64,000 nucleotides of DNA from Cyanidioschyzon merolae (GCA_000091205.1 AP006496.2); one strand, 5' to 3'; numbered from the stretch's first letter, positions 1 through 56,984 are shown. Numbers and translations: made by a program. The notes: generated from the sequence alone by a model not told the origin.

Positions 1-535
1 CTCCAGGAACGTCCTCGCCTACCGGCACAATGGAGTGTATTCGATTTCGAAAATAAGTGGATGCGCTGGGGTGCACACATCAGAACGTCGAAATGGAGGC
101 GAAAGTTCGAGGACTTCTTGAATTGATGAGTTCCACCACAGGTAACGGACACGTGGAGTGCGTGAACCGAGACTTGCACGCCACGAATTATATGAGGCGA
201 TGTGTTGTGCTGATGACGAGACTTAAAGAGCTGACGCCATCCAGCTTTGTGGAGCAGCCTCTCAGGCAGGAATTGCGCCTGGATGAACTGAAGCCGATAG
301 CAGGTGAGCGATCCAAAAAGGCTGGGTGGTGTCAGCACGAGGGTATCCATTTCATCCACATGACCGTAGAACATTTTGCGTTTGACTTACATACATAGGT
401 TCTATTCTGGAGTGACAGAAAGAGCTTGTGGTTGGCGATAACTCTATCCCAGTTCGTGGCAGACGTTATCTTCGGGCACCCGTGCTTGGTACGCGTCTTG
501 CGACGTTCTAGTTGATCTTGAAAGCGCTGCTTGCA
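1..535 (+). mobile_element. Copy C of the Fanzor/TnpB-like element; 3' portion only, truncated by the window start. It holds the C-terminal RuvC-III region and the conserved 3' tail.
   Basis: ORF 57..398 aligns to the C-termini of copies A and B (VEME...AKVRGLL...VNRDLHATNY versus VNRDFNAAINI; tail FVEQPLRQELRLDEL versus FMGQPLKVELYDTKL). The conserved tail motif ttgatcttgaaagcgctgcttg at 512-533 matches B 28219-28243. Confidence 0.6.
57..398 (+). pseudogene. Degenerate TnpB/Fanzor C-terminal remnant. RuvC-III has decayed to NRDLHATNY, and about 40 aa are deleted relative to copies A and B.
   Basis: Amino-acid alignment to copies A and B across the zinc-finger and RuvC-III region. Confidence 0.55.
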
Positions 536-587: not shown

Positions 588-790
588 CGTTCATACAGTG
601 CACGCATCGCTATGCATACGTTCATACAGTGCACACATCGCTATGCATACGTGTCCGTGCACGCATCGCTATGCATACGTTCATACAGTGCACGCATCGC
701 TATGCATACGTTCATACAGTGCACGCATCGCTATGCATACGTGTCCGTGCACGCATCGCTATGCATACGTGTCCGTGCACGCATCGCTGT
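588..790. repeat. Minisatellite of alternating 31-bp and 28-bp units (gcacgcatcgctatgcatacg + ttcatacagt or tgtccgt), about 7 copies.
   Basis: Direct reading: the unit starts at 600, 631, 659, 690, 721, 749 and 777. Confidence 0.85.
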
Positions 791-1044
791 TCGGCGCCCT
801 GCGTGCTCGCCCGAAATCGTCACTGCGCTGCCTTGGCGCGCACGCGGGGTCCGGAAGCGGCAGTGCGCAGCGCACCGTTTTGGCTCCTCTTCGGGAGCGC
901 GCTCTCGGCTACCAGTGCCGTTCTCTACCAAAAGTCATAGGGAAATAGGTGTGGTTGTTGATTTTGAAGAGGTTACCGAAGCAGTTGCAGTGAAAGAGCA
1001 CGTTGATTGGATATAACTTGTAGCAACGGGAAGCGCGCCTATGC

Positions 1045-7000: not shown

Positions 7001-8588
7001 TTCATTGTGCGCCCGTGTTGCTGACAAGTCCGATGTGCTGGCGCCTTGGAGCATCGGCGCTGGCCGAAAGCCTCCAAGGATGGCGGACACTGCGTCAGGA
7101 ATGCACGTCGTCGTCGTCGTCGTCGTCGTCGTCGGGGTCAGCAACGTTGACGATGCCTGCGTTGGCGGCGCTTCTCGCACGCTGGCATGAGCGGGTGCTT
7201 GCGTGCTGCACCCGACACTGGCGCCAGGTTGTGAATGCGGCATGTACGCATCATACTGGCGGCTTCTCGTTGGACACCTGTGCTCCGCTGCTGGAGCAGG
7301 CGCTTCACCTCGGCGCTGAGGCCGCGACCTGGATCGCTTTTCCGCTAGCAACCACCACGAACGCTGAAACAACACTAGGACATGCTGCTCAGCGTCGGCT
7401 TGGTCGTCATGATTGGCGTCTGCAGGCACAGGCGCTGGACGAATGGGCCACGGAGCTGATGCGACCGTTCAGTCCCGAAAGTGACGCGCTTGGCTGCACG
7501 GTGCTGCGTCCTGCTGCTGCTGCTGCTGCTGCTGCTGCCGCCGCCGCCGATTATGATGGTAATCATAACGACGGTCATGATGATCACGGTACACCCGCAT
7601 CGCTCCAAAATATCTGCAATGTTGACTCGTCAACCGCTGTAGTTGCCCTGGCGGGCGTACCCAATGCATGGCATTCGAATACGCTGGGTGCGCCGTTTTC
7701 GCAGCCGTCCACATCAGTCGACGGATTCTATGTCCAGGGCGCTGCGGCGCTGAGCGCACCTGTCACTCTTGGCGCGTTATTTGGCGTGCTACGCTCTGCT
7801 CTGGAGATGTTGGCCGTCTGGAGAACAAGCTGCTGGCAGCGTTTCATCACCAATGCATCGAGTCCGGTGGCAGCATGCAGCGTGGTGGTGGACGACGCGA
7901 ACGCCACCCATGCTGGAGCGCGCTTGCTAGCCAGCACACTCGAACGACGCTGGCTGCAGTTGCTACGCGCGTCGTTGGCACGTCTCTGGCAGGTCAGCGG
8001 GCCCGCAGACGACACAGCAGGCGATGGTGTCTGCCACTGGATCGACCGTAGCTACGGCCCATATGTGTTCTACCTGTACGGGACAGCGCTGCTGGCGCAG
8101 ATGCTCCCTGATCCAGAACGGCAGGCACTCTACAGACAGGTGCGGCATCGCTGCCCTAACTGGATACTGCCGACGCTCCTGCGTCTACACGGGGCGTTTA
8201 TGATATGGTGCTGCACTCGTGTGCGATTCCTCGAGACGTCGCAGCATGCGGCATCATCTGCAAACGAAACGGCGATGGCGTCTCCAGGCAGTGCAACGCC
8301 GCCGCTGCTGCTGCTGCTGCTGCATGGACTTGTCCATGTGCATGCGACGGAATGGGTGACGCTTTCGCAGCAATTGCTGCGCTGGCTGGAGACGGCTGGT
8401 GCGGCACCAGCCGGATTGCTTCCGTCAGCGGGTATGGCGTATGCATCGGAACGCGCGCCCCTGCCGGCAGTCTTGGCGCAACGCGTCCTTGCGCAGCGGC
8501 TCGAGACCAACCGCGTGATGCTTGGACAGATTCCAGCGCTCGATCATGTGACCGCATGGGTCGAGCGTTGCGTGGCAAGCAGCAGCAA

Positions 8589-8620
<32 letters not shown>

Positions 8621-11559
8621 ACAACACCATCCCGAGTGTCGGCAAATGTGCGATTGGCGCGTCCACTTGGACGTGCTGGGAGACGCTGTGGCAAGCGCTG
8701 CCTTGGTACTGGACATGGCTGACGCGAGTCTTGGAAAACGCTGCGCTTGGGAGCAGCGGATCGACTGCGCCCAGCACGCGGTACGCGATCACGCCTGCAC
8801 TAAGCATGGTCACCAGCGGTGTCGTTGTACGCGTCGCCCGTTTCATTCAAGTGGTACTGGCGAGTGCGCTGCTCGAGCTGACGCCCTGTGCAGAGAGCGC
8901 AGGCGCCCAGTCGGATGATGCGCGGGATCCACCGCGTGACCCAGACGCATGGATATGGGCACCAGAAATGACGGCAACGACAACGGTCGACTGGTGGGCA
9001 GCACACACCCAGCGCGCACTGCTGTTACACGCGATTGGCCCGTCGAGTGAGCGCCTCGCCGCGTTTCTCGAGCTGGTGCTTCCGCAAAACCAGTCTGGTG
9101 CTGCTGGTAACTCGACTGGTCTGCTCTGGTTTGTTCCAGCGTCACTGCAGGAGGCACACGCGCACCTCGTTGCCGATATGGTGCGTCTCTTGCATCAGGT
9201 CGAAGGCGCTGCGACGGTCCATCGTTTCTTGACGCGGCTGACGCCTCTCCTTGGAGGACGCTCTGAATACCTGGAAAGCTGGACGGGCATTCGGGCCTGT
9301 CAACGGCGTTGGTCGATCGGATTTCTCACTCGACTGGTGTTTTTGGCGAAACTGCAAGAGCCGGTACGCATACCTGGCAACGTGCACGCTCCCAGAGGCG
9401 TATCAGCGTCCGAAATCCACTGCTGCGGCAGCGACGAATGCAGCGAGACTGCTGACGCTTACGGAGCGCTGGGCGAGTCGTCGGCAAACGCTCTGTGTAG
9501 CGACCAGGAGGCAGCACTGCGACTGGCGGCCGCGTTGCAGCATCTTCTGACACAGACGCTGCTGCATGGACTGGTAGCCTCGCCGCTGCTTTGGGCCTCG
9601 GAACAGGCCGGCGCTCGTGAACGACCGGCCAGTCGCCTATGGTCGAGCATGGAGCCGCTTGTGCGCGCCCTTTGCCAGAGCGGCGATGTTGAAGACGAGG
9701 ATGCAGGAGCAGCAGCAGCAGCAGCAATGCCGTCGTGGCCGCTCTTTCTGGCGCGGTATGCAGCACGCTTCTGCAACGGGCTGGTGCGGCATCCAGCGAC
9801 AAGCGTAGCAACATCGACAACAATAGCGGCTGCAGCACCGCTGACGCATGTGCGGCACCTCTGGCTACCGTTGCTGGCGCGTTTGCGGCAGCTGGTGCCT
9901 ACAGCTTCGGCTGCGACGGTTAACAGCGAAACAAGCTGGCGCCGGCACCAGGTGTCGACGCTGCTGGCCAAGCTGGTAGACGAGCTGGAGGCGCTGCTGA
10001 CAAGTGCGCTCGCCTGGAATCATATGTGGTTGCAGGGGCGGCGTGCGGCAGTCACGGGTGATGAAACACCTGCTCTGTCGCGAGCTGCTCTGCAACTGTT
10101 CCAGTACCTCGTGGAGTTTGCTGGTATTCTTTTGGTGTTGTGTGCGCGCCTTTTGCGGGTACCAGGGCGCGCTCCGTTCTGGTCGCGAGTGATTCGTCTT
10201 GGTCGTCGAGCGCTGGAGGAGTACGCAAACATCGTTGCTGGTCAACGGCGGCAACTGCTACAGACAGAAACGTCCTATGCGCCTGGTAGGTCGCGTTCCC
10301 TGGAACACTTGCGTTGTGTCTGGATCGCTACGGTATTGCGAGGTCTCGCCCAGATGGATCTAGTGCCTAACGATAGCTACTATGCGAGTTTTCGGCGACA
10401 CTTGATTGCGGCAAGCCTCGCCCAGGATGCCCTGGATGCGCTTGTACTGGGTCTATGGCCTGGTTTGTCACCGACTTTGTTGCAGCAGCCGGTCGGCGAG
10501 AGCACGGCTGCCAGGTCCGAACGACCAGCGGTTGGTGCTTGTGTTCGCGAGTCGGATGCCGCTGCTGAGGCGACTGCGTTGCTCGCCCTGCTCGATTGGT
10601 ACTGTCGACCGGAGACGCTGTTCCCTGCAGGCACTGCTGCTCTGCAGCGACTGGAACGTTTTCAACAGGAGTGGCTAAGCGATCTGTGCAGCCGGTGCCT
10701 AGCCCAGGCGCAGTCCGAGCGTTGTGTGAACCTGTTGCAGCGCTGGCTCCAAGGTCGGCTTTTGACGTGTACCCGTCAGTCGTGCTTGTCGCATCTCAGC
10801 GGTGCTGTGTATTACGCAACGATGGCGAGAACGCTTGCCGTTGCCTGGTGGTCCGGTTGCATGCGCCACGTTGCTGTGCGTCTGAATCACGCAGGTTCAC
10901 CATCGATGACGACGACGACGACGACGACGCCAGAACAGCAACAACAACAACAACAACACAGGGCGGCGTTGCGCCCTGCAGACCGAGTGGCGACGGAAGT
11001 GATCAGCGACCAGTGCTCGGGCCGACGATTTGCACAGCGTTTTCGCAACAGCGTCGACTTGGCTGCTGCTCTAATGGAGTGGCTCGCGGCAAGCACCCGA
11101 GTGGATGCCCCCGCTCAAGCGACATGCGAGGAGACGTTGGCATTGCTGCTGGAAGCGCTAGCTGCACATGTCAGTGCCGGTTCATGTCCACATTGCGGTG
11201 ACGATCCAAGTCCGGCATCGATATCGTCTGACGAGCGCGTGCAGTTGCTACGTCGTCGACTGGCGGAACAGCGAGCACGCTCTGCCTGCGCAGCGGTACA
11301 CGCGGTATGGACGGATCATCTGGAGCGACTCGCTCGCAAGGAAGCGATGGACGCCAAGTTGTTTACCCATCCTAGTTGTTGTCGAAACTGGCTGGTGATA
11401 CAAGTCAATGACGTAGTGGAGAGAGCGGCTTGCTGGCGTCGGCGACCCGGTGATATCTGGCGGACCGCTGGACCTAGCGTCTTCGATGGAATGAAAGACG
11501 CTACGACGACGACGAGGACGCCACCGCCATGGTTGTGCTGGTCTGTACCTGAACGCTAA
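1045..11559 (+). CDS. Giant low-complexity protein of 3,504 aa, rich in Ala/Ser/Leu/Arg, with a SANT/Myb-like domain. No other recognisable catalytic domain.
   Basis: Uninterrupted 10.5-kb ORF starting at a true ATG. SANT signature WTPAERRLFFAELDRW...W...IFSKAIPSRCGYQCSNFY near 4.17-4.35 kb. In-frame homopolymer runs: polyT (aa), polyQ, polyA and polyS. Confidence 0.6.
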
Positions 11560-11910: not shown

Positions 11911-12490
11911 TCTTCTCGCATGCAATAGATCGTGTTGCTAGATAGTTGCTCCTTATCAAAGAATGCGGGAAACGGATCCAAGTACTGAATAAAGTGTACT
12001 AGTCAAGGTGGACTTGCCAGTAACAGATCCTCTCTAACCCCAACGTGCTGACCTCTTTCTTCTCGCATGCAATAGATCGTGTTGCTAGATAGTTGCTCCT
12101 TATCAAAGAATGCTGGAAACGGATCCAAGTACTGAATAAAGTGTACTAGTCAAGGTGGACTTGCCAGTAACAGATCCTCTCTAACCCCAACGTGCTGACC
12201 TCTTTCTTCTCGCATGCAATAGATCGTGTTGCTAGATAGTTGCTCCTTATCAAAGAATGCTGGAAACGGATCCAAGTACTGAATAAAGTGTACTAGTCAA
12301 GGTGGACTTGCCAGTAACAGATCCTCTCTAACCCCAACGTGCTGACCTCTTTCTTCTCGCATGCAATAGATCGTGTTGCTAGATAGTTGCTCCTTATCAA
12401 AGAATGCTGGAAACGGATCCAAGTACTGAATAAAGTGTACTAGTCAAGGTGGACTTGCCAGTAACAGATCCTCTCTAACCCCAACGTCGA
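11911..12490. repeat. Intergenic satellite with a 146-147-bp unit, 4 tandem copies.
   Basis: The unit tctcgcatgcaatagatcgtgttgctagatagttgctccttatcaaagaatgctggaaacggatccaagtactgaataaagtgtactagtcaaggtggacttgccagtaacagatcctctctaaccccaacgtgctgacctctttctt repeats at 11914, 12061, 12207 and 12353. Confidence 0.9.
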
Positions 12491-14731: not shown

Positions 14732-15953
14732 TAGCAATGACGACACTCATCGCGCGGGAGAGGCGGTGGAGGTGGCGCTCTATGAGCAGCACAGATATTT
14801 CTCGATGTATCATTGTAAACGCGGGACTTGTAGATTCGTGTCTTTGGCACCAACGGACACCTCTTCTGTACAGAGCGGTGCATGCTGGAATGCTTGTACC
14901 AGTTTATCCTTATTGTTTTCGTTTGTTTCTCGTGCAAGGAGTTCAATAAAAGGAATGTGTCTCGTGGACTGGACAGAGATCGCGGAAAGCTTTGATGTTG
15001 TGGTCGCTATTGGCTTGCGATAATGAGCGACCTGACTATCCCAGGGCTCGGTATTGTCGAGCGTTGGGCATGCGCGCTCTCAGGGCCGTATCGAGAAGCG
15101 CGGAATACCTGGCACACTTCATGCCGTGAGCACACGAGCGATCCAGTGGCACACGCGGACGATCTTTGGTAGGTGTACATGGTGCTGCACTGGGGTTGCA
15201 AAGCGTTTCTTCTGCATGAAGGCAAGAGGCGTGCATTCGCTAACTTGTTCAATGCGTTGGAAAATAAAAAATGACTCCCAATTCGCGTCATGTGGTGGTA
15301 GCCTCCAGCGATGGATGTGCGGTTGCGCGCAAGAGCTGCCTGGTCTCTGCTGCTTCGAGGAGCGCGTAGAACGAGTGCAGGAATCGATGCTGCAAGATTC
15401 ACGTCAACTCATTCAGGACGACGTACAGGCATCACGAGCTCTGGTCAAAATTGAAATACGTAGAGAAGAAGAGAGCGCAACAGAGACGGATGCATGAAAT
15501 GGTGTACGGTATGCTGAGCGTACGTCAGCATGGGTTCCAAGTGAATCCAACGGGCTTGCACAGGTGTGTGTGTGTGTATGTGTTTGTGTGATTCCATCAG
15601 CTACGAAGCACCCATGTACGTTCTATATGGGGAATCGCATGCCCCGACGAACACCGGAAATGTATTGTGCTTCGAGAGCGCCCGTCGGTTTTGTGTGGAG
15701 CGAACTGGCGAGTGAATCGTTTAGTACTCAGTTTGGGCCCTGCGCTGAAACGCTGCAGAGTTTCGATGCAAAGTATCAGTTGCCAGAATCGAGGCGTTGA
15801 AATCTCGCTTGGATCGAGGCACTCTTCTGGTGCGGTCAACAGCCAAGCAAGGCTGGGGCACCATACAGATACACCGGCAACGGAGTTCCTGGAATTTTCG
15901 TGAACAAAAATGGTGTCCCGTGATCCCATGCTCCAGAGTCCAGATCGTTGGGG

Positions 15954-16436
15954 TTAGGATACAGGCTCCACGCTGGCCATGATGCCCTCTGCTAGCAGAC
16001 GTCCACAGCAGCACTCGGCGAGCCGCTCACTCGGCATGAGCACCTCGGCTCGTCCGCACCGCTCCAGTATTCGAGCGGTCGCCACGGCCGTGCCAAAGCC
16101 CATTTGCGGGACATGGCTTACGAGAGCGCGCACAACGTGCTCCGTGGAGTGGCCCTGCTCGAGCGTCTGTGCTCGGAAGAGCACAACTCGATAGACCGGC
16201 GCGCGTATCGTCCAGTTTTCGGGGCCTGTGGTCGACGGCTGGGCGCTGCTGGCTCCAGCGGCGCTGGGCGCAGCGGCGACAGCAGCGTTCGCCGGAGCGC
16301 TGCGACTGGACTCTCCCTTAGTATCACGGAAGAAAGACGGCAAGCGTTGGACGCGTTCCAACTCGCGAGCAGAGGCGCGCGGAGCGCCTCGTCGTCGGGC
16401 AGCAAGCCACGCTGCCGTGGTCTCCAACAGCACCAT
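15954..16436 (-). CDS. clpS: ClpS-like ATP-dependent Clp protease adaptor with an N-terminal presequence. The ORF stays open upstream to 16742.
   Basis: C-terminal core YRVVLFRAQTLEQGHSTEHVVRALVSHVPQMGFGTAVATARILERCGRAEVL...RLLAEGIMASVEP matches the ClpS fold consensus. ATG at 16436. Confidence 0.55.
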   Translation of the reverse strand: MVLLETTAAWLAARRRGAPRASARELERVQRLPSFFRDTKGESSRSAPANAAVAAAPSAAGASSAQPSTTGPENWTIRAPVYRVVLFRAQTLEQGHSTEHVVRALVSHVPQMGFGTAVATARILERCGRAEVLMPSERLAECCCGRLLAEGIMASVEPVS

Positions 16437-16851
16437 CAGCTGCACGCGAACAACTGCAGGCGCAGGTCGAGCCGGTTGTGCGTTTCCGTGAGGACTCCCA
16501 TTGGGCGTTGCTGCGTGCTGCTCAGGAGGTTGCCCAAAACGACGCTCCTCATCAACACCGTCGTCACTGCTGCCGCTCGCCGCTGTACTAGCGTAACACG
16601 AACAGCGCCGACGCTTCGGAGCAACCACGCCCGCGGGCGCTCCGCTGACGCTCCAACGGTGCCCAGGTTGTAGGCGTTGCAAGGTACACACGACGAAAAC
16701 CATACCGGTGTTTACGCCAGAGTCGAGCGTCACGATGTGCAACTTTCAGCAACACTTATGCGCAGTAGATAGTACGTACGGGCGCCGCAGCCAAACGCCT
16801 TTCGAAAGTCGAACGACGTCGGGCGTGTACAGTAGCGGCGACCGGCGGCCT

Positions 16852-19189
16852 AGACGTAACGCTTCCAGCTGGTGTGCAGACGCCTCCCAGCGTTTCTCGG
16901 CGGGCCACGTACTATTTCTTCTAATTTCGTCTCATATACTTCTACTTTTCGAGATTGTCCAACAAAATTCCCTCTTGTCTACTCTGGAGGTCTGTTCTCC
17001 AGCACTGCCCATCTCCGGATATTGATAGCGGCGTTAAAGTCACGATTCACAAAATCCATACGTCTCCTGCAATCTCTGGTTGTACTTTCTGATGCAAGTA
17101 GTCCACGAACTTTCGCTCTCCTTTCAATTTGCTCTTCCGTCAGCGGTTCGTGCTTTGCTATTTCCGAACGGCTCGTTGGCACTTTTCCATCTCCACTGTC
17201 TGAAGTGTACAACCCATTTCATGGTGTGTATAGGACGTTCGGAACTCATGTACAGGTATCGTGAAGAAACGCCTTGCGCACTCTTTGTATGTTCTTGCCG
17301 TTGGAACTGGCGCAGTCCCTTTTTTCGACGCCGAGCACCCTGCTCTGTACGCTACTACGAGCCTCTGACTTTCATCCTCCTTCAGGGCGCTCAACTGATT
17401 GAAAAAATTCGCGAACGCCCGCTGCTTCCCACAATACAAGTTCATTCACAAACGAGCCCACCGGGGCTTGGTATACTCCTCCCACAGCGCCTCCCAATGA
17501 GCAGCGCGAACTTTCATGAATTTCCGAAAAGCTTCAAAGTCCGCTCCTCGGCTAGTCACCTCGCTCAAAGCTTCCATGTGATCCTTCACTCCTGAATTCC
17601 ATTTCTCGATTTTCTTCCTTGCATTCATTATACCGGATTCTCGATAGTATCTTGGTCTCGAGAACCTCAAAAGACGCATGTCTCTCTAACGAAAGTTACC
17701 ACCAGTACTATCTTCCGCACGCTTCGGTGCTGCGATGGTGATGATATTCGTATTCCCGGGGTCCGCGCCAACGACAAAGTCGTTATCTTGTACTTTCTGT
17801 GCCGCAGGATCCGCCTTCTTGTTTTCTTCATGCTTCGTCGCGCCAACGACAAAGTCGTTATCTTCCACTTTCTGGGTCGCAGGATCCTCCTCTTTCTTTT
17901 CTTCATGCTCCGCCGCGTCAACGACAATGTGGTTATCCTCCACCTCCTGCGTCGCAGGATCCTCCTCTTTCTTTTCTTCATGCTCCGCCGCGTCAACGAC
18001 AAAGTCGTTATCCTCCGTCTCCTGCGTAGCAGGGTGCGCCTCCTTCTCATCTTCATGCCTCGCCGCATCAACGACATGGTCGTTATCTTCCACCTCCTGC
18101 ATGAGAGGATCCTCCTCTTTGTTTTCTTCATCCTTCGTCATGGGCGCAGTCGAGGGCGGAATTGGACGATCTTTCTTCAACCGCCGATAGTGTATACACA
18201 TGGCTACTCCATCGGTTTCGATCAACCCAGTAAATACCTTTTGTTTGGTCTCTTTGAGACGTTTGAAATTGAAGATATTCTTCCAGTACGTCTCCCGGTT
18301 ATCACCGGAGAACTCCTTGTTGCTAACATTGAACTCCGGACAGATCTCCTTCATGATGCCATGAAGGATCCTGGAGTCGATACTCACAAAATGTGACTTG
18401 ATGTTGCACAACGGAACCACGTTGAACCGCTTACCCATTAGGAAAGCCTTCTGTCTCTCCCACTCTTCATTTTTCCTCACTCAGCTTCATCTCCGCCTTG
18501 CGTTCGAGTTCTCGATTCAGGAATACGAAATAGAGCAGGATGAGTTGATAGCATCTTTTTTCATCTTTTTTGAACTCTGATATTTTTTCTGTTGGATTCG
18601 CCAGCCCCATGACTGCACGGTGCTCTTGTATAACCGCACGGATTACAGAAGCCTCATTCGTGCTCTCGTTTGGCGCCTTCTTGTCGACAAATTCGACCTC
18701 ATCTTCATACTTTCGATCGTTCGTGATGCCATTGATAATCGCCCATATTCCTTTGCGAGACAGGCCCGGGTAGAGTGGAAACACGGTGCGTATTATGAAA
18801 CGTTCGAGGTTCATTGTCAAATGGTTCTTCAGGTTCGTGATGTGCTTCATCGCCCCGTAGCCGTAAATACCCCGGTCACCCTTGTATCGAGTACCGTTGA
18901 AGCTGTAAAAGGGATGTTTTTCGTGGGGGCCATGCACTAGCACATTTTCCCTCCGCGTTTTCTCTCCACCAAGCATCAGGTGTCGAATAAAGGTGATGTC
19001 GAAAAACTCGTCTGGAATCTCGACCGTTTCGATGTGCGTCACGTCTTTGTACATCTCCCTCGCCAAATGCATCAGCCCTGACGACGCCTTGACAATACTC
19101 TTGGAGTACGAGTCGACGCGTTTTTCGATAGCGTCTCGCAACTTTTCCCTGTACGGATCCTTGATATGGCCAAGAAGAAAGGCTCTCAT
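16852..19189 (-). pseudogene. Fanzor1-like (TnpB-like) RuvC nuclease gene, disrupted. Ruv[18 protein letters not shown], RuvC-II region IPVHEFRTSYTHHE, zinc finger, RuvC-III VNRDFNAAINI.
   Basis: Main ATG at 19189. One frameshift near KAEMKLSEEK/EWERQ. Nonsense TAG where B has CAG (GGNFR*RDMRLL). Frameshifts at PRWARL/MNLYCG and after MEKCQR. Nonsense TAG where B has TTG (RPPE*TRGNF). The coding tail ...RGNFVGQSRKVEVYETKLEEIVRGPPRNAGRRLHTSWKRYV* is conserved with B at the amino-acid level. Confidence 0.75.
17745..18125 (-). repeat. In-frame 75-bp coding tandem repeat, about 5 copies, encoding roughly [25 protein letters not shown], inside the Fanzor-like ORF just upstream of RuvC-I.
   Basis: Period 75 nt (for example 17877 and 17952). 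Copy B has about 2 units (27.16-27.26 kb). Confidence 0.85.
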
Positions 19190-19399
19190 CACCTTCTCGT
19201 CGTACAGTCGTCTTTCTTGCCGCCTTCGACGTAGGACCTCTCCCCTTCGGTTCTTTTTCTTCTCCTTTTCTTCTGGGCTCGGCACTGTTTTTCGTTTTTT
19301 CTGGCAGCCAGCGATACTGGGCCTCCAGGATCGTCGACTTGCTTTTTCATAGCTTTCCTTTTTCAGTTTTTTTAAATGAACCCGCTGTGAATGCTTCGG

Positions 19400-19406
19400 T
19401 TATATA
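19400..19406 (-). promoter_or_regulatory. Conserved TATATAA box about 50 bp upstream of the uORF ATG (19350) of element copy A.
   Basis: cgcagTATATAAccgaagc in A aligns to cgcggTATATAAcagaagc in B (25857-25863) within the conserved 5' end. Confidence 0.45.
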
Positions 19407-20799
19407 CTGCGAAAAAACACTTGGCCAGACTTGTTTGAGGGTTGAAACACCAATGAACTGAAAACTATATTTTTGTTCGACTCCGACGCAAATACAACTT
19501 TTACAGCTGAACAACACGCTCCTGGTCAGCATCGCGGTTCCTTTCAACGGCGGCATGTGCATCGCGTCAGTTGACTGCCTGATCTCCGAGATGCGTTCAT
19601 TAAGCGCAATGCGTCCATCGCACGAGACGCCACTCCAGTCGATGAAGGACACGTGTCCGACACCCCGCATTGGCACATGCGTGTTCGCATCGCATTGCAG
19701 CCAAACTAAAGTATCGTAGATAGGAAACTCACGTAGAACGATCTCTTGCTATAGACGCTGTCGCTGGTGCCGAAGCTACTGCCCATCGCAGTACCGCCTG
19801 GACATACATGGAAATGTTGGGACCTAACGCGATACCTCGTGATGCTTCTATCAAAAGCGTAGCGTTCTCTGCGGCTTACCGTTGTGTGGATGACGTATGC
19901 ATCACTCTTCTCACTAGGAATTTCGTTAGTTTTATTCATCGTAACCAAACTAGGTACGGTGGGATTCCTGAACACGGACATACGTTTAATGCCGATGCTT
20001 GTCACGCATGCTACACTGACGCTGGAATGAGGAACTGACCTGAATTGTGCTTCTATCCTGCGTCATAGGCTGGTACTGATGACCGTTCAAGTCATTTCCA
20101 TGCTGCTGTCGTTGTCTAACTTATGGTGCCTGCTTCGTCCTCCGGATCCGGTGATCTTGGCAGAGGCATAGCACACTCGACCGGCCCCCTGCTATCGGTT
20201 TCAGCTTCTCCTTGTTCACCTCTGGCCTGGGAGGTTCCCCCAGAAAGTTGGACCGCGTCAGCTCCGCCGGTCGCGCGTTCATCACCATTCATCATCTGAT
20301 ATTGATGGCGTTTTGTCTGAAACGCTCGTGATAGAGCTGAGGTCAAGAAGCGATCAATCTTGACCGACGCTATCAAACGAGCGGTACCAGAAGCTGAGGG
20401 CTGCAGCCGGCACCAGGTGCTCTGATGCCTACATGCTGGCCGTGAATAGTGCGTGACGAAGTCGCACAGCATGCCACGGTTTCCTAGTACGTAAACCAAG
20501 CACGTATTCGAAACGTTCGGGTTCAGTGTGATGACGAGTCGCCGCTACGGCATTCTGGGAAAATCATCCGAGTGCGCTATGGTTGTTCGAACATCGAGCA
20601 TCATCACGTGTATGGGTGCGTTTCACTGCACGAGTTGCAACGATCATCGAATCCACCATCATCCAAAAGTGACGAAAATTTACAAGCGTACCGGGCTCGC
20701 ACCTCCAGGTCAGGACGTGCCCACCAGCACGCAAACAAATTTCGTGCCCTGCTGTGCTTTCACCAAAAACGAAAGGAAACATGCGTTTCCTCGACCAGG

Positions 20800-21079
20800 G
20801 ATAGAGGGTTCCGAATTCCTTCAGATACTGCCGATGTTTCGTCCGAACCCAGACCAGCATCTGCAGTGTGCCCACGAGCATACACAGGATGCCTGCGATT
20901 GTTCGCATCATCGAGATCAATCCTACCCACGCCAGTACCTCAAATATGCAGTTCGGATACGACACGAACTCGAAAAGCAAGCCGAATGGGATCCGCCACC
21001 AGCAGCGGCCGCGAAACCCGATTGCAAACCGCTCCCGCAAGCCATTTGGGCAAACGAGTGGTGCAGCGCGCATATTCAT
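20800..21079 (-). CDS. Exon encoding the C-terminal domain of a 3-oxo-5-alpha-steroid 4-dehydrogenase-family protein (SRD5A/TECR/polyprenol reductase-like). Gene structure is incomplete.
   Basis: GLLFEFVSYPNCIFEVLAWVGLISMM...LVWVRTKHRQYLKEFGTLYPWSRKRMFPFVF matches PF02544. The ORF has no stop after the conserved end, so either an intron or a C-terminal extension follows. Confidence 0.45.
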
Positions 21080-21664
21080 ATAATGCAGCAGCAGTAGCAG
21101 CAGCAGAGTGCATCTAGGGGTGTGCGTGGATGGTGAGCATGCGTTGCGCAGCTACGATGTGCTTTCGTTGAATGCGGCAGATAGCTGCATGGATCGTTGC
21201 GTGCGGTGCGCTGCTGTGATGCGCTTTACGGGCGGCGTTCGGGAAACCTGCTTTTGCCTCACGGGAGCGCGCGTCAGTGTCGAGTAGCCCGTCGGCAGGG
21301 CCGGACAGCATCTCTTGCAAACGAGTCCGCTGGCAGCGAATCGAGCAGGCGATACGACGTTGCGCTCGTCATCGGATATCGGCACTGCAAGGCACACGGA
21401 TACCTGTAGAGCTCGTAGTTGATCGGTCTGCAACACGGTTCGGCATGCGCCTCGCCAGGGAACTGCAGAGCAAGTGTGTGCGTGCACAAACGATGCGCGC
21501 TCTGGGCTGGAAAACGACGCTGCGTCGCAGCTTGTGTCCGCAAAATATACGTACTCCTCTGGTTCGGTATCGGAAACCGCAGTAGCTACTCGCGCAGGTG
21601 CTGCTGACACAGGTATCGATTGCGCGGCGCCTGAGCGCAATATCCAACCGCCGCGACTCTGCGC

Positions 21665-21994
21665 TCACATGTGCGCTTCGATGCCACGGAGGATTTCTTC
21701 GGCCTTGGCGCCGTTAATCGTGAGCACGCGGTCACCATTCTTGTAGAAATGAAAGCTCGGTACGCTGCGAATACCAGCGGCCTTCATCATCATAGATGTT
21801 TCCTTGGACTTATCCCCCACCACTTTTAAGAACACCACGTCGGTGTACTCCTCACTCCATGATTCCATCTTCGGTTCCATGAGTTTGCACGGCCCGCACC
21901 AGGTGGTCCCGTAATCGACAACAATGAGCTTGTTCCCCGCTTCCGACAGGATGCGTTCCATTTCCTCTTGTGAATCAACTTCCCGAACCGCCAT
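21665..21994 (-). CDS. trx: Thioredoxin (h-type fold). The ORF extends upstream to 22240, with a His7 tract.
   Basis: WCGPC active site. Full thioredoxin fold alignment: LIVVDYGTTWCGPCKLMEPKMESWSEEY...VVFLKVVGDKS. ATG at 21994. Confidence 0.8.
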   Translation of the reverse strand: MAVREVDSQEEMERILSEAGNKLIVVDYGTTWCGPCKLMEPKMESWSEEYTDVVFLKVVGDKSKETSMMMKAAGIRSVPSFHFYKNGDRVLTINGAKAEEILRGIEAHM

Positions 21995-22428
21995 CCTAGG
22001 CCGAAGCGAACCCAGAGGCCTGCGGCGGCTGTAGCTGTAGCTGCAGCGGTGGTGGTGGTGGTGGTGGTGTCCAGACCCAACGCCCTGCTGCACCGTTCCG
22101 AGGGCGTGTCGGCGCCATAGCGGCGCTTTACTGCCACTAGCAAGCAAGGCCCGTGTACACACCGCGCCACTACCGAGGTCAGCGCGTTTCCCGACCGATC
22201 CCGCAACAGGTACTGATACAAAGCAACTGATTCCTACCATTTCCGTCTCTCAGGGTCCTGCTTGTGTGGAGTACACGTTGCCCAGCAAAGCACCAGCGTA
22301 GAGCAGTCGCCACAACGATCTCCGCGCCTGTGCGCTGCGGCTGGCGCACTGCCGCATCTCATCGAGGCGAGATCGCGGCGCCTGGAAGTGGACATCAGCG
22401 GCGGCAGCGGCGGCAGCGGCAGCAGGTG

Positions 22429-22630
22429 TCACGAGCACGGGGTGCGGACATATACCAACGAACATACGGTGTGTCGATGGGTGCTGCTTTGGGTGTCACG
22501 CGCACGGGGTTCCGAAGTATATCAGTGAACATACGATGTGTCGATGGGCGCTGCTTTGGGTGTCACGCGCACGGGGTGCGGACGTATATCAGTGAACATA
22601 CGGTGTGTCGATGGGCGCTGCATTGGATGA
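22429..22630. repeat. Tandem repeat with a 67-bp unit, 3 copies.
   Basis: gtcacg(c)gcacggggtgcggacgtatatcagtgaacatacggtgtgtcgatgggcgctgctttgggt at 22429, 22496 and 22563. Confidence 0.85.
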
Positions 22631-24406
22631 GCGTCGATTGCGATCGTTTGCCAGATGAAGCATTTCTAGAAGCGGATGTACACCTCCTAACGCATGATAT
22701 TTCCTGTATGGATGCGTCCGTTGCTTGACAAGGCCAGGGTGATCTCGACTTCGGATCGGATGCTGTTGATGATACGCCAATGATCGAGAGATCATTCGGG
22801 TATCGAAAGCATGATCGGTCTCGTGTACCAGATAGATTGCAATCGCGAATACTGGAACCGAGGAGCACCCCAGTACGCGAGCGCTCGCAACACGTGTCCC
22901 CACTGAGCGAGCGCCTCACTGGGCGACATCGGCCTCGTGGTGAAGCGTCGCAGCGTGCCCCTATTCATAAGCAACGACGATGCTGCAGTCCTGGCGCTGC
23001 GATTGTGCCGTTTGTGGTCTGCTAGTATTATTTTGACACGGTTCGACACCTGATACCGAGGGCTCGCGCTGCCGCGGGATGCCCAGCTCCGGTTTTCGAT
23101 CCCCGCCTTCGAGCGCTGCCTTTCGGATTCAACGACCGGCTCAGCAGCGAGACTAGTGACGAATCGTCTGAAAGCGCTGCTAGGACGCTGCGCACTGCCT
23201 CTGTGTACACGCGTAGGCGGTGGGTATCTGGATGCGACGCGCTCGGCTTTGCTCAGCGGAGCGCTTTTGTGCAACCATTGCGCATGTTGCTGCTCGGTTG
23301 CGACTTGGTCTGGATGGCAGTCTATTCGAGTCTGAAAGTCACGCATTAGGTCATGAGGGTCATTTTCACTTTAGTGACATGCAAAACGGAAAGCAGGTAC
23401 TCAATGTTCCAATGGGGTTTGCTTGCGTGCATCCATAGACGGCCCGCATCAAGCTTCCGCTCGATGCTGTTTCTGGCGCTGAGCATCGCGGGCACGCGGC
23501 ACTCGGCACTGTGAGGTGAGCAGCGACCTGCGCGAGCGCAACACATTACGGCCGCAGGAAGAGGTGTCGATCAAAGGGGTCGAACGGATTCCACTGCCCA
23601 TGGGTCACTCGGTGAAGCCGTTCGCATGTACCCGTTCCCAGTCATCATCAGCGTGTTGGGTATCGATCAGCGTTTGCGTTTCGCGCTTGAAGCAACTGCC
23701 TCTCTTCATATACCACGGATGCATCCGTATGCTCGGCTTGTATGGACCACGAACTGGATCCCATGTCAAGCAGGCAAACGGACGCGCTCTTTCGTGACCA
23801 ATACACAGCATCTGCTGAGCGTCGCTCGATCGCTTTCTTCCTTCCAGTCCGCGAATGCTCCGATGCGTGCTCGTTCGACGCGAAGTCGCACCAGAGAAAC
23901 TGCATCGAACAGAGTCCGTCATGCATCGTCGCAGGAAACACAGCATTATCATAAACACGCACGCTGCCTCGGGTCTTTTGAGCCTTGCGCACATCAAAAG
24001 TCAACAGGCCCGCTGCCGGGTGCATCGCGACGATCGTCAGCGATCAGTGCGTACCGTCCGAGATCGTGATTCCCTAACCAGCATGAGCGCGTCGTTCCTT
24101 GTACATCATCCACACTATAGTGCTGCGTCATCCACGCTCAGTGCTCACACGACGCGCCCAGCTCTAACAGATGCGCCGCCTGACTATTGCGCAGACAACC
24201 GGAGGCACACATCCGCGAAACCAGACATCGCCGGTATTTCCCCAGGCAAGTCATTTGCTGAACGCGCGGTCATTCAAGGGAGCCTATCGGGAAATGCCTA
24301 GAAATGACGAGCCCCTATGGCAGGTGCATGAGCCTTCACTGCCACCGTTCTATGCCTTCTGTCCTGAGACGCGCCGGCGCTGTCGCGGCCGTCGGTAAGC
24401 CAGCGC

Positions 24407-25065
24407 TCAAGCACCAGCGCTGTAACAATGCTGGCTGGGATCCGAGCCCAAGATGACGTAGGTGTAAATTTCGTCGTTCAGCATTTGTGCGGTATACGAT
24501 GCGATAAACTTGTACCGACCAGAGGTCAGCGCTGAACGGAATACCCGTTCCATCTCTGGAACCACCAGCATTGCAGCTTCAAAGGCCTCCCGTCCAAAGA
24601 GGCCCTCGCCGCCGTATGCATACGGACTCGACCAGTTGAAATAGTGCGCTGGCAACTTTGTGGCATGCGCAGCGCCCATATAGTCGGTGCTGGTCCAGCC
24701 GCCCACGGCGAGCGCTGACTCGACAGCTGCCCGTCCGAGCGCACTGCAGTTGCCAGCGGCCACGTCTGCTATCGGACACTCCACCATGTTATCCACGACG
24801 TTCGCAGCACCAATGATCAGTCCCTTGTTCAGACACAGGTCATGATCAAGGTCTGCAAGCGCATTCATGATGGTAAAGTCGTATTGCGACACGTTCAGGG
24901 CCATAGCGTCGGTCTCGTTGATGTAGATGCCACCGAGCGCCCTGCTCGGCACCCGCAGGATACTCTCTTCGAGCGTCTCGAGGTTCAGCGGCGTAACCAC
25001 TGTCGCAGCACAACGAGACAAACATCCCGCAAGCCCCCACAGGCTAAGAAAAGCGAAAAGAAGCC
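24407..25065 (-). CDS. Secreted Cys-containing protein with a signal peptide and N-glycosylation sites; unknown family. Paralog of the gene at 30544..31191.
   Basis: Signal peptide MRAWLLFAFLSLWGLAGC. Shared C-terminal motif LGSDPSQHCY and overall about 40% identity with the paralog. ATG at 25065. Confidence 0.55.
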
Positions 25066-25856
25066 ACGCTCGCATATTAATCAGAACAGAGCCACGTTCC
25101 AGGAAAAACAGCAATGTCTCTATCGTGGGTGGTGCTGCATTGGGGATCAAGGCGCACCGCGTGTGCGTGCGTCTGTGCGCGGAGCGCCCTGCGGCGAACA
25201 GGCCCCGGTGCAGGCCCTGCGAGACGCCGCGGTGGCACCACCGGCGCACGCCTCGGGAGCCGGCACACTCGATCCGTGGCGATCGAACAGGCCCAGCGGC
25301 AGCGCCAAAATGGGCGTTCGGGACGTCGGCGGCGCCACCAGCATCAGCGATCGGCGCCAGATTAGGAAGCGATGCGTGCCGGCGCGCGCTGTTTCCGACG
25401 TTCCAGGCGTCGACGCGTCGATGTCGGTGGTGGTGGCTGCGGGCGCCTGCATCTCCACTTAGGTGAGGGCGGTACTGAGATGGGCAGGAGCGTCGGCACC
25501 AGCGACATAGCATAGAGCAGGAGTGCATTCTACGTGAATTTCCAATCTAGGACACCTGATTTCAGCTGCAGTGCGATGCGAACACGCATGTGCCAATGCG
25601 GCTTCGGACACGTGTGCTTCATCGATCGGAGCAGCGTCTCGTGCAGTGCACGCATCGCGCTCGGTGAGCGCACCCCGGAGATCAGGCAGTCCATTGACGC
25701 GACGCGTATGTCGCCAATGAGGGGAAACGTGATCTTGATCAGTAACGTGTAGCCGCAATGTAAAATTGTAATTTCATTGAGTTCGTATCCAGGTATAGTT
25801 TTTATTTCAATTGTGCTTCACCCTTAAAACAAGCGTAGTCAAGTGTTTTCTCGCGG

Positions 25857-25863
25857 TATATAA
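25857..25863 (+). promoter_or_regulatory. Conserved TATATAA box 56 bp upstream of the uORF ATG (25919) of element copy B.
   Basis: Aligned with the copy A TATA box within the conserved 5' end. Confidence 0.45.
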
Positions 25864-26079
25864 CAGAAGCGTTCAAAGAACGTTCTTTTTCAAAAAAAAA
25901 TCTAAAAAAAGGAAAGTTATGAAAAAGCAAGTCGACGATCCTGGAGGCCCAGTGTCGCTGGCTGCCAGAAAAAACGAAAAACAGTGCCGTGCCCAGAAGA
26001 AAAGGAGAAGAAAAAGAACCGAAGGGGAGAGGTCCTACGTCGAAGGCGGCAAGAAAGACGACTGTACGACGAGAAGGTG

Positions 26080-28177
26080 ATGAGAGCCTTTCTTCTTGGC
26101 CATATCAGGGATCCGTACAGGGAAAAGTTGCGAGACGCTATCGAAAAACGCGTCGACTCGTACCCCAAGAGTATTGTCAAGGCGTCGTCAGGGCTCATGC
26201 ATTTGGCGAGGGAGATGTATCGCGACGTGACGCACATCGAAACGGTCGAGCTTCCGGACGAGTTTTTCGACATCACCTTTATTCGACACCTGATGCTTGG
26301 CACAGGGGAAGCGCGGAGGGAAAATGTGCTAGTGCATGGCCCCCACGAAAAACATCCCTTTTACAGCTTCCAGGGTAATCGATACAGCGATGACGGAAAT
26401 ATTTACACATGCGGGGTAATGAAGTACATCACGAACCCGAAGAACCATTTTACAGTGAACCTCGAACGTTTCATGATACGCGCCGTGTTTCCACTCTACC
26501 CGGGCCTGTCTCGCAAAGAAATACGGGCGATTATCAATGGCATCACGAAGGATCGTAAGCATAAAGATGAGGTCGAATTCGTCGACAAGAAGCCGTCACG
26601 CAGGAGCACGAATGAGGATTCTGTAATCCGTGCGGTTGTACAAGAGCACCGTGCGGTACTGGGGCTGGCGAGTCCAACGGAAAAGATATCAGATTTAAAA
26701 AAAGATAAGGAAAGATACTATCGCCTCGTCCCGCGATATTTTGTGTTTCTGGACCGAGAGCTCGAACGCAAGGCAGAGGTGAAGCTGAATGGGAAAAATG
26801 ACGAGTGGGAGAGACGGAGGGCTTTCCTAATGGGAAGCGCTTCAACCTCGTTCCAATGTGCAACATCAAGTCACATTTTGTGAGTATCGACTCCAGGATC
26901 CTTCATGGCATCATCAGGGAGATCTGTCCGGAGTTCGATATAAGGGAGACAGAGTTCACCGGTGAAAACCGGGAGACATACTGGAAGAATATCTTCAATT
27001 TCAAACGTCTCAAAGTGACCAAACAAAAGGTATTTACTGGGTTGATCGAAACCGATGGAGTAGCCATGTGTATACACTATCAGCGTTTGAAGAAAGATCG
27101 TCCTGGTCCGCCCTCGGCGAACCACGAAGATGAGACGGAGGCGGTTCCTGCCACGTAGAAAGTGCAGGAAAACGACTTTGTCGTTGGTGCGGCGAAGCAT
27201 AAAGATGAGGAGGAGGAGGATCCTGCGACGCATGAGGTGGAGGATAACGACTTTGTGGTAGGCGTGAACCCCGGGAACACGAATATCATAACCATCGCTG
27301 TATCCAAGCGTGCAGAAGATGGTACTGACGGCAACTTGCGTCAGAAGACATGCGACTTTTGAGGTGCTCGAGAGCAAAATGCTATCGAGAATCCGGTATC
27401 ATGAATGCAAGGAAGAAAATTGAGACATGGAATGCAGTAATGAAGGATCACCCGGAAGCTTTGAGCGAGGTGACGAGCCGCGGCGGGGACTTTAACGCTT
27501 TTCTGAAAATCATGAAACTTCGCGTTGCTCGTTGGGATGCGCTGTGGGAGGAGTATACAAAGCCTCGGTGGGCTCGTCAACGTATGAAACTATACTGTGG
27601 TAAGCGGCGCGCGTTCGCGAATTTTTTCAATCAGTTGAGCGCCCTCAAAGAGGATGAAAGTCAGAGGCTCGTAGTAGCATACGGAGCAGGGCGCTGGAAG
27701 ATCCAAAAAAGGACTACGCCAGCTCCATCGACAAGAACGTATAAGGAGTGTGCACGGCGTTTTGCTACAATACCTGTTGATGAGTTCCGAACATCGTATA
27801 CACACCATGAACGGTGATGTACGCTCCAGAGAGTCGAGATGAAAAAGCGCCAGAGGAGCCCTGAGGATATAAAAAAGTACGGAGCGCAAACGGAAGAGCA
27901 AATGGAAAGGAAAGCGAAAGTTCGTGGACTGATCGCATTGGCGAGTACAATCAATGGCAAGAAACGTATCGAATTCGTGAACCGAGACTTTAACGCCGCC
28001 ATCAATAGAAGGAGATGTGCGGCGATGGAGACGAGACCTGCGGAGTTGACAAGAGAGAATTTTATGGGGCAACCTCTCAAGGTGGAATTATACGATACGA
28101 AGCTGAAGTCAGTAGTAGGTGGCCGGTCGAGAAAGACGGGGAGGCGTCTGCATTTCAGTTGGAGACGTCTCGTCTAG
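26080..28177 (+). pseudogene. Fanzor1-like (TnpB-like) RuvC nuclease gene, disrupted. RuvC-I has mutated to GVNPG (D to N). RuvC-II IPVDEFRTS, RuvC-III VNRDFNAAINRRRC.
   Basis: Main ATG at 26080, overlapping the stop of a 53-codon basic uORF (25919..26080, TGATG). A 1-bp indel at AFLMG/KRFNLV. Nonsense TAG at VPAT*KVQ where A has CAG. A 1-bp deletion at RQKT/MRLL. TGA at HHER*C where A has ATGGGT. Elsewhere continuous where A is broken. Confidence 0.75.
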
Positions 28178-28724
28178 GACGAGTTCGCCGCCACTGCTGT
28201 ACACCGCTGGCGGCAGCGTTGTTCTTTTGGAAAGCGTTTGTTGTTCGTGGTGCTCTTGCCGTTTGTCTCATGCGCGTTTGAAGGTGCGAATTTAGCAAGT
28301 CGAGTTGGGCTCGTCACGGGTGTGTGTGCACCGCAGGCGCGGGCAACGTGGTACACGACGCTCGTACCTCCACGGATGCTTCCAAGTGAACCACTGGTGC
28401 CGGACTGGTGTTCCTCTCAGAGATAGTGGTTTAACCGTTTCCGTTTCCCCGCGGTTGCTGAGCGCAGAAGGGACAGCTTTGCTGTACGAATGGACGAATA
28501 TCGCTTCGAGGTGCACTGTCCAGCATACCGGGCATAGAGGCTGATAGATCGGGCGCTTTGGTATCGGTGCGTTGCGAAACCGCGCAAGGTTCAAGAAGCA
28601 TGCAGTCCGCTTTACTTTCTGGATTTTTGGCACCAGTGCCCATATACGGTTGCTCGAACCGAATACAGTGCTTTCGCTAGGCGCTAGCGGCAACGGAGCT
28701 CAATGATCATGCGCTGCTCCAGTG

Positions 28725-36720: not shown

Positions 36721-37258
36721 TATATTCTATTGAGCTCCTGGATAGCGTCCGTGTCCAGCGAGCGCTCTAGGTCGATGGAGGCGGCCATAACGATGTTCGC
36801 GCCTCAGATTGCTCAATTGGCGAAACGTTTACCAAGGCCAGCGTTCTCCGATTGTGTGCTTTTCTTTTTTTTTTGTTTTTCTTCAGTGCGCGATGACGTA
36901 TCTATCAGGTCCCCTACTTCCCAGTTGCATTACACATACTTCTTCTCGGATGTACTGGTCGTTCATCGCAATGCATGCAACGCATGCGCGATGTCGCACG
37001 TGGAATCCGCCGAACAGCCATACAGTGCGCTGGCGCGCATTGATCGCACTGCCTCCGTCTATATTGTCGCAAAACATTTAATATTATATAGTTCTGTACC
37101 GTTGGTGCAAGAGGTCCATGGAAGCGCGCAGCGCAGTGCGCCATCCCCAGCGAAAAGCGACTACATCTTCCAGACGATAGCTGAATGACCTCGCCTGCTG
37201 GACGGTATTTTCGGACTGCAGCGTCAGCCACAGAGACGAACGCGCCACGCACACCATC

Positions 37259-56041: not shown

Positions 56042-56984
56042 GAACGAAACGCAGCGGATAATTGCGTTGGGCGTGCGCTGCTGTCGCCGCATGCACGCCA
56101 TGTGCTCTGCGATACAGAAGAAACGTAAGAAAAGAAAAATGCGCATCATCGGAGAACGCTGGCCTAAGTAACCGTTTTGTCCATGAAAAAAAATGCCCTC
56201 TGCGATATGCCTTCGATGCCGCGCTGCTGTTCGATTTTCACCGCGTACACACAAACAAACAAACATACACACACACGTGTGGATACAGGGACCATGCGCG
56301 TTTGCCTGTTCTTCGCTTCAGTCTATGCATGAGAGGAACGATATCGTCCAGCATGGGTCCTGACAGATGGTTCCTGGAAGCGATAAGCGGTGGCAAGGAA
56401 CTGATGACCGCTGAACTCTTTATTGTCCTGCAAATGGCATTCCAGATTGCGCATCGCCTCGTGCGTGCTATGCCGCATGGATGCTACTGTTCGGGAGATG
56501 TGCCGTGCTACGCGCTGCAATGAAAGGTCTTCTCGTGATCGGTGTTTGTCCGGTACCAGCAATGCTTTCATGAATCGTTGATACAAGTTGCAGTCCAGTG
56601 CACAGAGGTTCTGCCGCCTCTGATCGTTTCCGCTTGTATCTCTCGGGAGTGCGACGTGGAGGCGCACAGCCCGGGTCTCCGAGCGCTCATCGAGATTCCC
56701 GCCAGTAGCGTCCAGGGAAACGCGACTCTCCCGACCAAGCGACCACCCCGCTGCATGCCCGCTTGTATATCTGGACGGCATATCAATGCACAGGACGGCG
56801 TGATCGAAGAGGCAGCGTCGAAAGCCGTGCCCGCTTTCACGCTGAGATCACTCGAGGCGCCGGGGAACATACGGCCTCGTGCCGATGCCCCTAGAAGCAC
56901 CACAATGCCGTTCTGGCTCGGTGCAGCGACCACAGCTGCACATCCAGTATCGTCGCAAGCGCCTGCGATACGCCCAGCACGTGC

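Follow-up and report, generated by a model that had tools for sequence, protein, structure and literature searches.

Fanzor elements and the analysed locus

Fanzor1 and Fanzor2 were defined by Bao & Jurka in 2013 (Mobile DNA 4:12; PMC3627910), in the paper that coined the name 'Fanzor', and the biochemistry and structures of Fanzor1 have been established in species other than the red alga Cyanidioschyzon merolae (PMC10530073, PMC11423790). C. merolae has one Fanzor1 family, CMe-1, whose CMe-1A form occurs in about 150 copies, each about 80% identical to a consensus of about 3 kb (3169 bp; Additional file 2 of PMC3627910). The CMe-1 protein is 734 amino acids long and encoded by a single exon. 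CMe-1A lacks terminal inverted repeats (TIRs), its target-site duplication (TSD) could not be determined, and its 5′ 635 bp are 95% identical to another repeat, TE-N2_CMe. Some CMe-1A copies in the genome still code for intact proteins, and the element has remained unclassified in C. merolae, with its class given as 'unknown' since 2013 (PMC3627910).

Here we analysed a stretch of 64,000 nucleotides of C. merolae DNA (GCA_000091205.1, AP006496.2; hereafter the window), in which an earlier note, made from the sequence alone, had described three copies of a eukaryotic TnpB/Fanzor-like RuvC nuclease element. The window contains five copies and relics (A to E) that are almost certainly decayed members of CMe-1/CMe-1A, the Fanzor1 transposable element family of C. 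merolae 10D, on presumed chromosome 14. This family is already known, having been catalogued in the C. merolae genome in 2013 (PMC3627910), so the suggestion of the note that the lineage might not yet be catalogued did not hold.

CMe-1 copies and relics

Copies A (16796-19816, minus strand) and B (25450-28236, plus strand) were delimited by blastn against the CMe-1A consensus and by their alignment to each other, and both are CMe-1 (Fanzor1) pseudogenes. The core of copy A (16796-19595) corresponds to consensus positions 661-3169 and is extended by a 5′ module of about 220 bp (19596-19816). The core of copy B (25656-28236) corresponds to consensus 648-3169 and is preceded by the same 5′ module (25450-25655). 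Over about 2500 aligned bases (consensus ~650-3169), A is 85.8% and B 86.3% identical to the CMe-1A consensus, the ranges in the blastn search being 85-86% for A and 84-87% for B. Proteins stitched together from A and B are 76-77% identical to the published CMe-1 protein, in which the RuvC motifs, including FVNRDFNAAINI, occur literally. Neither copy carries the 635-bp TE-N2_CMe module that defines subfamily 1A; both begin at consensus ~648-661. Because their own module of about 220 bp replaces the TE-N2_CMe-like one, A and B appear to belong to a sister subfamily within the CMe-1 family and not strictly to the 1A form. In a comparison of the window against itself, A and B formed inverted repeats of about 2.9 kb (80-90% identity, blastn E = 0), arranged head-to-head and separated by 5.6 kb, with the boundary of their alignment at 19816/25450.

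The other three loci are fragments. Relic C (66-339, plus strand) is a decayed 3′ end covering residues 613-723 (tblastn 44% identity, E 5e-16). It is 70% identical to consensus 2835-3087 by blastn and contains a degenerate RuvC-III motif, VNRDLHATNYM, at 159-194. Relic D (15098-15708, plus strand) is heavily decayed, covers residues 501-697 (tblastn 29-39%, E 5e-11) and is interrupted by internal stops and one frameshift. Relic E (20178-20309, minus strand) is a C-terminal fragment of residues 676-719 that begins with AINIR (tblastn 52%, E 4e-8); it also resembles 27997-28131 of copy B in the blastn self-comparison. All three fragments are older relics.

All three copies of the earlier note were thus recovered, with corrections. 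A and B are real, at the bounds given above instead of 16791-19690 and 25570-28245. The 3′ piece C exists as a 44%-identical relic that spans 66-339, not 1-535, and relics D and E had been missed. A protein of roughly 700 amino acids, as it had described, is obtained only after stitching across frameshifts and stops, the published consensus being 734 amino acids.

Two further fragments at 36913-36963 (plus strand) and 58870-59041 (minus strand) are 77-88% identical to CMe-1A consensus 84-258. They match the TE-N2_CMe-like 5′ module, with no Fanzor open reading frame (ORF) nearby. A tandem array of units of about 28-31 bp (ACGTTCATACAGTGCACGCATCGCTATGCAT) adjoins relic C at 587-766.

Profile and structure comparison

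Close relatives of the window copies came from Joint Genome Institute (JGI) metagenomes that also hold C. merolae-like host genes. An exhaustive profile search gave 2271 representatives at E ≤ 1e-3, and the family profile and alignment were made from 82 diverse full-length representatives. Searched against PDB sequences, this profile matched only three proteins, PpFz1 of Parasitella parasitica (2.3e-24), SpuFz1 of Spizellomyces punctatus (9.4e-17) and GtFz1 of Guillardia theta (9.4e-12), all of them Fanzor1, and the alignments spanned all three RuvC motifs. A single-sequence phmmer search against PDB gave no match.

For the fold comparison, the metagenomic homologue P0001 (752 amino acids, 69% identical to the window consensus) was modelled by AlphaFold2 (AF2). 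A model with a shallow alignment of 19 sequences (predicted local distance difference test, pLDDT, 33) was discarded; the rerun with the 82 representatives reached a pLDDT of 82.6 and a predicted template modelling (TM) score of 0.81. Foldseek against PDB ranked SpuFz1 first (E 2e-17, TM 0.58/0.70, about 770 columns, whole chain), followed by PpFz1 and GtFz1. Cas12 proteins and ISDra2 TnpB ranked far lower with marginal scores; ISDra2 TnpB (8h1j) had a probability of 1.0 but an E-value of 0.013 and TM of 0.16/0.29 over 269 columns. Profile and predicted fold thus support CMe-1 as a Fanzor1, and not a Fanzor2 or TnpB. The identification of a eukaryotic, TnpB-derived element of the long Fanzor1 type, made from motifs and size, was borne out by the restriction of the profile matches to the three Fanzor1 proteins, by the identity to CMe-1 and by the whole-chain superposition of the P0001 model on SpuFz1, which had been proposed as a check. 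A precomputed match to PF26935 (DUF8286) was weak and uninformative, and we found no paper mentioning PF26935.

Catalytic motifs, TNB domain and acidic repeat

Residues invariant across the 82 representatives are D484 (GxDPG), G623, E656 (vDEFrT) and R724, D725, N727 and N731 (NRDxNAAxNI; P0001 numbering). In the P0001 model, these motifs are accompanied by strands at 479-485 and 618-623 and a helix at 724-737. RuvC-I lies at 17731-17778 (minus strand) in copy A, where the catalytic Asp that corresponds to D484 is kept, and at 27252-27299 (plus strand) in copy B, where it is replaced by Asn. The canonical RuvC-II strand, LVVAYGAG, is found at 27668-27691 (plus strand) in copy B, with its equivalent at 17338-17361 (minus strand) in copy A; G623, in the VVAYGAG strand, occupies the position of the TnpB RuvC-II Glu. 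A relocated Glu is carried by the motif IPVDEFRTS at 27770-27796 (plus strand) in copy B and by IPVHEFRTS, with the Glu retained, at 17233-17259 (minus strand) in copy A. Opposite the E656 motif, the alignment has IDEFRTS in PpFz1 and LDEYKTS in SpuFz1. RuvC-III, FVNRDFNAAINI, is located at 17018-17053 (minus strand) in copy A and its equivalent at 27974-28009 (plus strand) in copy B. In the alignment, the Asp of its NRD pairs with D1000 of the 8gkh chain, which by count is SpuFz1 D606, the offset of 394 from the maltose-binding protein (MBP) fusion being inferred from the start of the alignment. SpuFz1 D606 is the catalytic residue mutated in PMC11423790.

A rearranged catalytic site has been described for Fanzors and TnpB2 (PMC10530073). 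In Fanzor RuvC-II, Gly or Pro stands in the Glu position, and the TNB domain is preceded by an alternative Glu some 30-45 residues further along (PMC10530073, PMC11423790). By alignment, the CMe-1 triad would be of this rearranged Fanzor type, with an Asp, a relocated Glu before TNB and an Asp. The motifs quoted in the earlier note (RuvC-I of copy A, IPVDEFRTS of copy B and FVNRDFNAAINI of copy A) are all present at the positions given above. It also picked the right Glu, and the family-invariant Asp, Glu and Asp align to the SpuFz1/PpFz1 motifs as it had proposed to check; its description of the triad as the canonical TnpB/Cas12 one is not tenable, the canonical RuvC-II position being an invariant Gly.

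The note had further placed a His/Cys zinc finger behind the Glu motif, and no CxxC...CxxC ribbon is found there. CMe-1 has THHELGC...C and RGLLALVST where SpuFz1 and PpFz1 have CPRC/CPKC...GLLxCxNxxC (SpuFz1 GLLGCTNPNC). In the alignment of the 82, the whole Fanzor1 subfamily from the profile search (2271 representatives, including TSOC_005131) is without the CxxC...CxxC ribbon, and a subfamily pattern, vHH..S.L..V...RGLLWC.ST...FVNRD.NAA.NI.RC, stands in its place. The missing ribbon thus seems to be a peculiarity of the subfamily. To our knowledge, a zinc ribbon is not a strict requirement for a Fanzor1.

Several results weigh against the reading of CMe-1 as a Fanzor1 RNA-guided nuclease. 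Pfam gave no match at E ≤ 1 on the ORF pieces of the window. On the full-length homologues the best match was that of Cas12f1-like_TNB to a distant relative (E 0.0013), at 19.3 bits against a cutoff of 26.3, so no TnpB-related model exceeded its threshold in the profile check suggested by the earlier note. The TNB zinc ribbon that Fanzor and TnpB proteins normally have is missing, two CxxC motifs occurring in none of the 82 representatives. The fold comparison was made on the 69%-identical homologue P0001, not on the broken window copies. Three candidate helices in the aligned 3′ ends of the element (described below) had 76-79% pairing, with covariation not above that of column shuffles, and because of this we claim no structured RNA. 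Finally, the literature searched contained no report on the activity of any C. merolae Fanzor.

Directly N-terminal to RuvC-I, the ORF contains a 75-bp tandem repeat that encodes an acidic unit of 25 amino acids, EDNDFVV[DG]A.KHEE.KEADPATQ.V. Copy A has five units (17763-18137, minus strand) and copy B about two (27115-27267, plus strand); the published consensus has one, P0001 four and another homologue, P0008, more. Relative to the consensus, copy A shows two 150-bp insertions, that is 300 bp of extra 75-bp repeats. The acidic repeat is the only disordered part of the P0001 model (residues 374-469).

Element ends and mode of spread

To compare element ends, 75 related loci were taken from metagenome contigs and their 63 distinct 3′ ends were aligned. 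The 63 copies cease to be similar after ...GAAAGGCG, which is also the terminus of the published consensus. Within the 3′ untranslated region (UTR), about 60 nt long, lie hairpin-prone segments and a CACTACTGTACAC motif that is almost invariant. In copy B, the 3′ UTR and right end (28175-28236, plus strand) consist of the stop codon, a hairpin-prone segment, the conserved CACTGCTGTACAC and the terminal ...GGAAAGCG; the equivalent in copy A is at 16796-16852 (minus strand). The terminal stem exists in two sequence variants, and in folds of individual copies CACTACTGTACAC lies in a hairpin loop in 6 of 48. RNAalifold structures were inconsistent between window sizes (the final 110, 200 or 290 nt). 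The segment 28175-28236 is a candidate position for the 3′ part of an omega-RNA scaffold.

Past the terminal GGCG, many copies continue into a G/T-rich tail of variable length with a 3-nt period, for example TTGTTGGTG, GTGGTGGTGCTGGTG or GCTGCTGCT... Tails with TTG, GTG and GCT units are seen in the window at 28237-28260 and 16772-16795 and in the 3′ flanks of the metagenomic loci L003-L077. Full-length copies have T/C-rich 5′ flanks. On the 5′ side, the common core begins at consensus ~648. Upstream of it CMe-1A has the TE-N2 module, A and B have their private module of about 220 bp, and the metagenomic locus L001 has neither, so the 5′ parts of the CMe-1 family are interchangeable. No TSD was found: the longest substrings that the two flanks have in common measure 4-8 nt, where the mean expected at random is 5.3. 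Truncated copies nearly always retain the 3′ end.

Among the alternatives considered, the one that survives best is that CMe-1 spreads by 3′-anchored copying, such as retroposition of the long interspersed nuclear element (LINE) type or another end-primed process, with the Fanzor as cargo or homing aid, and not by cut-and-paste. We regard this as unlikely. The 3′ end is present in nearly all partial copies, which start at consensus 2093, 2236, 2737 and 3073, and relics C, D and E are all pieces of the 3′ half. The 5′ modules differ from one subfamily to the next, the variable G/T-rich tail comes after the conserved end, and the published element is without TIRs (PMC3627910). However, no TSD is detectable and no reverse transcriptase partner was identified. 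Most copies begin at two discrete points (consensus 1-7 or ~648) with no continuum of starts, old copies decay in many ways, and near-duplicate metagenome loci mean that the counts are not independent. We hold the wider proposal with equal reserve, namely that CMe-1 is a zinc-finger-less Fanzor1 lineage, common with green algae, on an element whose spread is neither cut-and-paste nor IS605-like but 3′-anchored. It is put forward because of the constant right end and its variable G/T tail, which resembles a microsatellite, the frequent 5′ truncations, the swappable 5′ modules and the lack of TIRs and TSDs. If true, 3′-anchored spread could mean retroposition or a Fanzor-assisted homing or copying process. 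The end structure of CMe-1 bears on how the element moves.

It is less probable still that A and B arose together as one segmental inverted duplication of host DNA and not as two insertions. The head-to-head arrangement at 5.6 kb, the private 5′ module and a 1-bp deletion at consensus 956 common to both copies would agree with a duplication. Yet in both copies the similarity breaks off precisely where the published 3′ end lies, the 5′ endpoint is common to the two and the flanks are unrelated. The identity between A and B (about 85%) is also no higher than that of either copy to the consensus (86%), and about 150 dispersed copies exist in the genome (PMC3627910). Two separate insertions of CMe-1 remain our reading of the pair.

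Coding state of the copies

Each copy was aligned to the consensus coding sequence (906-3110). Copy A has three frameshifts (near 19300, 18474 and 17174) and three in-frame stops (17688, 17448 and 16981). Copy B has at least three frameshifts (near 25969, 26832 and 27345), two stops (TAG at 27156-27158 and TGA at 27815-27817) and the D-to-N change at RuvC-I. In six-frame translation, the longest ORF pieces of A and B are 264-299 amino acids, and no intact Fanzor ORF was found in any copy of the window. The frameshift at consensus 956 is present in both A and B and is therefore ancestral to their subfamily. By these reading frames A and B are pseudogenes, which overturns the implication of the earlier note that the elements are functional; like the short relics C, D and E, they are molecular fossils that have no nuclease capability.

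That A and B are functional, currently active Fanzor1 nuclease genes is accordingly extremely unlikely. All three catalytic residues are retained in copy A, intact CMe-1A proteins are encoded elsewhere in the genome (PMC3627910) and near-full-length ORFs occur in related metagenomic contigs (e.g. P0001). Nevertheless, the reading frames refute activity for A and B, in which the frameshifts, the stops and the lost Asp of copy B leave just the short pieces given above. Nor is a gene annotated at copy A, because the genes on its two sides have the consecutive accessions BAM81355 and BAM81356.

The chance that the locus is a prokaryotic TnpB insertion sequence of the IS200/IS605 type, or bacterial contamination, is close to nil. 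Only a distant fold kinship with TnpB/Cas12f (8h1j) speaks for it, whereas the flanks are exact C. merolae nuclear genes and the protein, of about 730 amino acids, has the complete REC/WED lobe of a Fanzor1. Neither a TnpA gene nor a Pfam OrfB match was found, and in sequence as in fold the top matches are without exception eukaryotic Fanzor1 proteins, so that context and match ranking refute it.

Host genomic context

In an exact-sequence look-up, six ORFs of the window matched C. merolae 10D proteins: XP_005537390 (12746-14728, plus strand), XP_005537391 (CMN276C; 15954-16703, minus strand), the thioredoxin-f-like XP_005537392 (21668-22240, minus strand), the NHE8 XP_005537397 (37259-39547, plus strand), XP_005537406 (CMN297C; 57224-58402, minus strand) and XP_005537407 (61032-62522, minus strand). 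These matches confirm the earlier surmise that the host is an alga. By locus-tag convention, we take the CMN tags to indicate chromosome 14 of C. merolae.

The window is rich in long uninterrupted ORFs, one of them of 3504 amino acids. The remark of the earlier note on spliceosomal introns is irrelevant in such a setting, the CMe-1 ORF being itself single-exon. Whereas the host genes around it were matched exactly, the 3504-aa ORF (1045-11559, plus strand) had no identical entry in the protein collection; the gene may have been annotated with a different model. Just downstream of it, at 11911-12487, lies a perfect tandem repeat of about four units with a period of 147 bp (100% identical). Short tandem arrays are also present at 22425-22629 (67 bp × 3, 86-89% identity) and at 56978-57103 (63 bp × 2, 94%).

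Only about 90 bp (gap 16703-16796) separate the start codon of CMN276C, which encodes a ClpS-domain protein on the minus strand, from the 3′ end of copy A upstream of it. Because of this short distance, the end of copy A lies in the presumptive promoter region of CMN276C.

Proposed biology and comparison with known systems

An intact CMe-1 element is about 3 kb long, with one intron-less ORF of about 734 amino acids for a Fanzor1 protein. The protein is predicted to have a basic N-terminus resembling a nuclear localization signal, a REC and a WED domain, a RuvC domain that is split, with the Asp of GADPG, the Glu of VDEFRTS and the Asp of NRDFNAAINI as putative catalytic residues, and a TNB domain whose zinc-binding Cys residues have been lost. 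As judged from its homologues SpuFz1, GtFz1 and PpFz1, an intact protein may bind an omega-RNA that is made from the right end of the element together with the ORF's 3′ end, and the 3′ guide of this RNA may direct the cutting of matching DNA beside a short target-adjacent motif (TAM). The likely role would be the maintenance or spread of the element.

As a discovery, the locus carries little weight: the family, its host, the consensus DNA and the protein were published in the paper that named Fanzor, and the copies in the window are dead. A reading based only on motifs was nevertheless able to spot a Fanzor1 correctly, and the CMe-1 lineage is now documented with a rearranged RuvC site and lost TNB zinc ligands. 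As the alga is thermoacidophilic, its intact CMe-1 copies might be candidates in a search for Fanzor editors that tolerate heat.

Compared with TnpB (ISDra2, PDB 8H1J) and Cas12f, its ancestral relatives, CMe-1 has the same RuvC core fold and a RuvC-III motif of the RDxNAAxNI type. TnpB differs in being about half the size, in having the RuvC-II Glu where CMe-1 has Gly, in its zinc ribbon and in its association with TnpA in IS200/IS605; CMe-1 falls below the Pfam OrfB and TNB thresholds. With SpuFz1 (PDB 8GKH, 9CEU-9CEZ), PpFz1 and GtFz1, CMe-1 has in common the fold, the bilobed order of REC/WED and RuvC/TNB and the aligned Asp, relocated Glu and Asp motifs. In contrast to these three, its sequence identity to them being just 13-15%, CMe-1 carries a disordered acidic repeat before RuvC-I, and it lacks the CxxC...C..C zinc ligands found in the TNB of SpuFz1 and PpFz1. 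Green-algal Fanzor1 proteins, such as TSOC_005131 of Tetrabaena socialis and the CRe families of Chlamydomonas, are members with CMe-1 of one large Fanzor1 subfamily that has no zinc finger, at about 30-35% identity to it; the host element of the Chlamydomonas CRe families is a Helitron, whereas that of CMe-1 is unclassified (PMC3627910). The published CMe-1/CMe-1A (PMC3627910) agrees with the window copies in genome, motifs, single-exon ORF, lack of TIRs and of a detectable TSD, and 3′ terminus. The copies A and B differ from it in being pseudogenes, and copy A has four additional 75-bp units.

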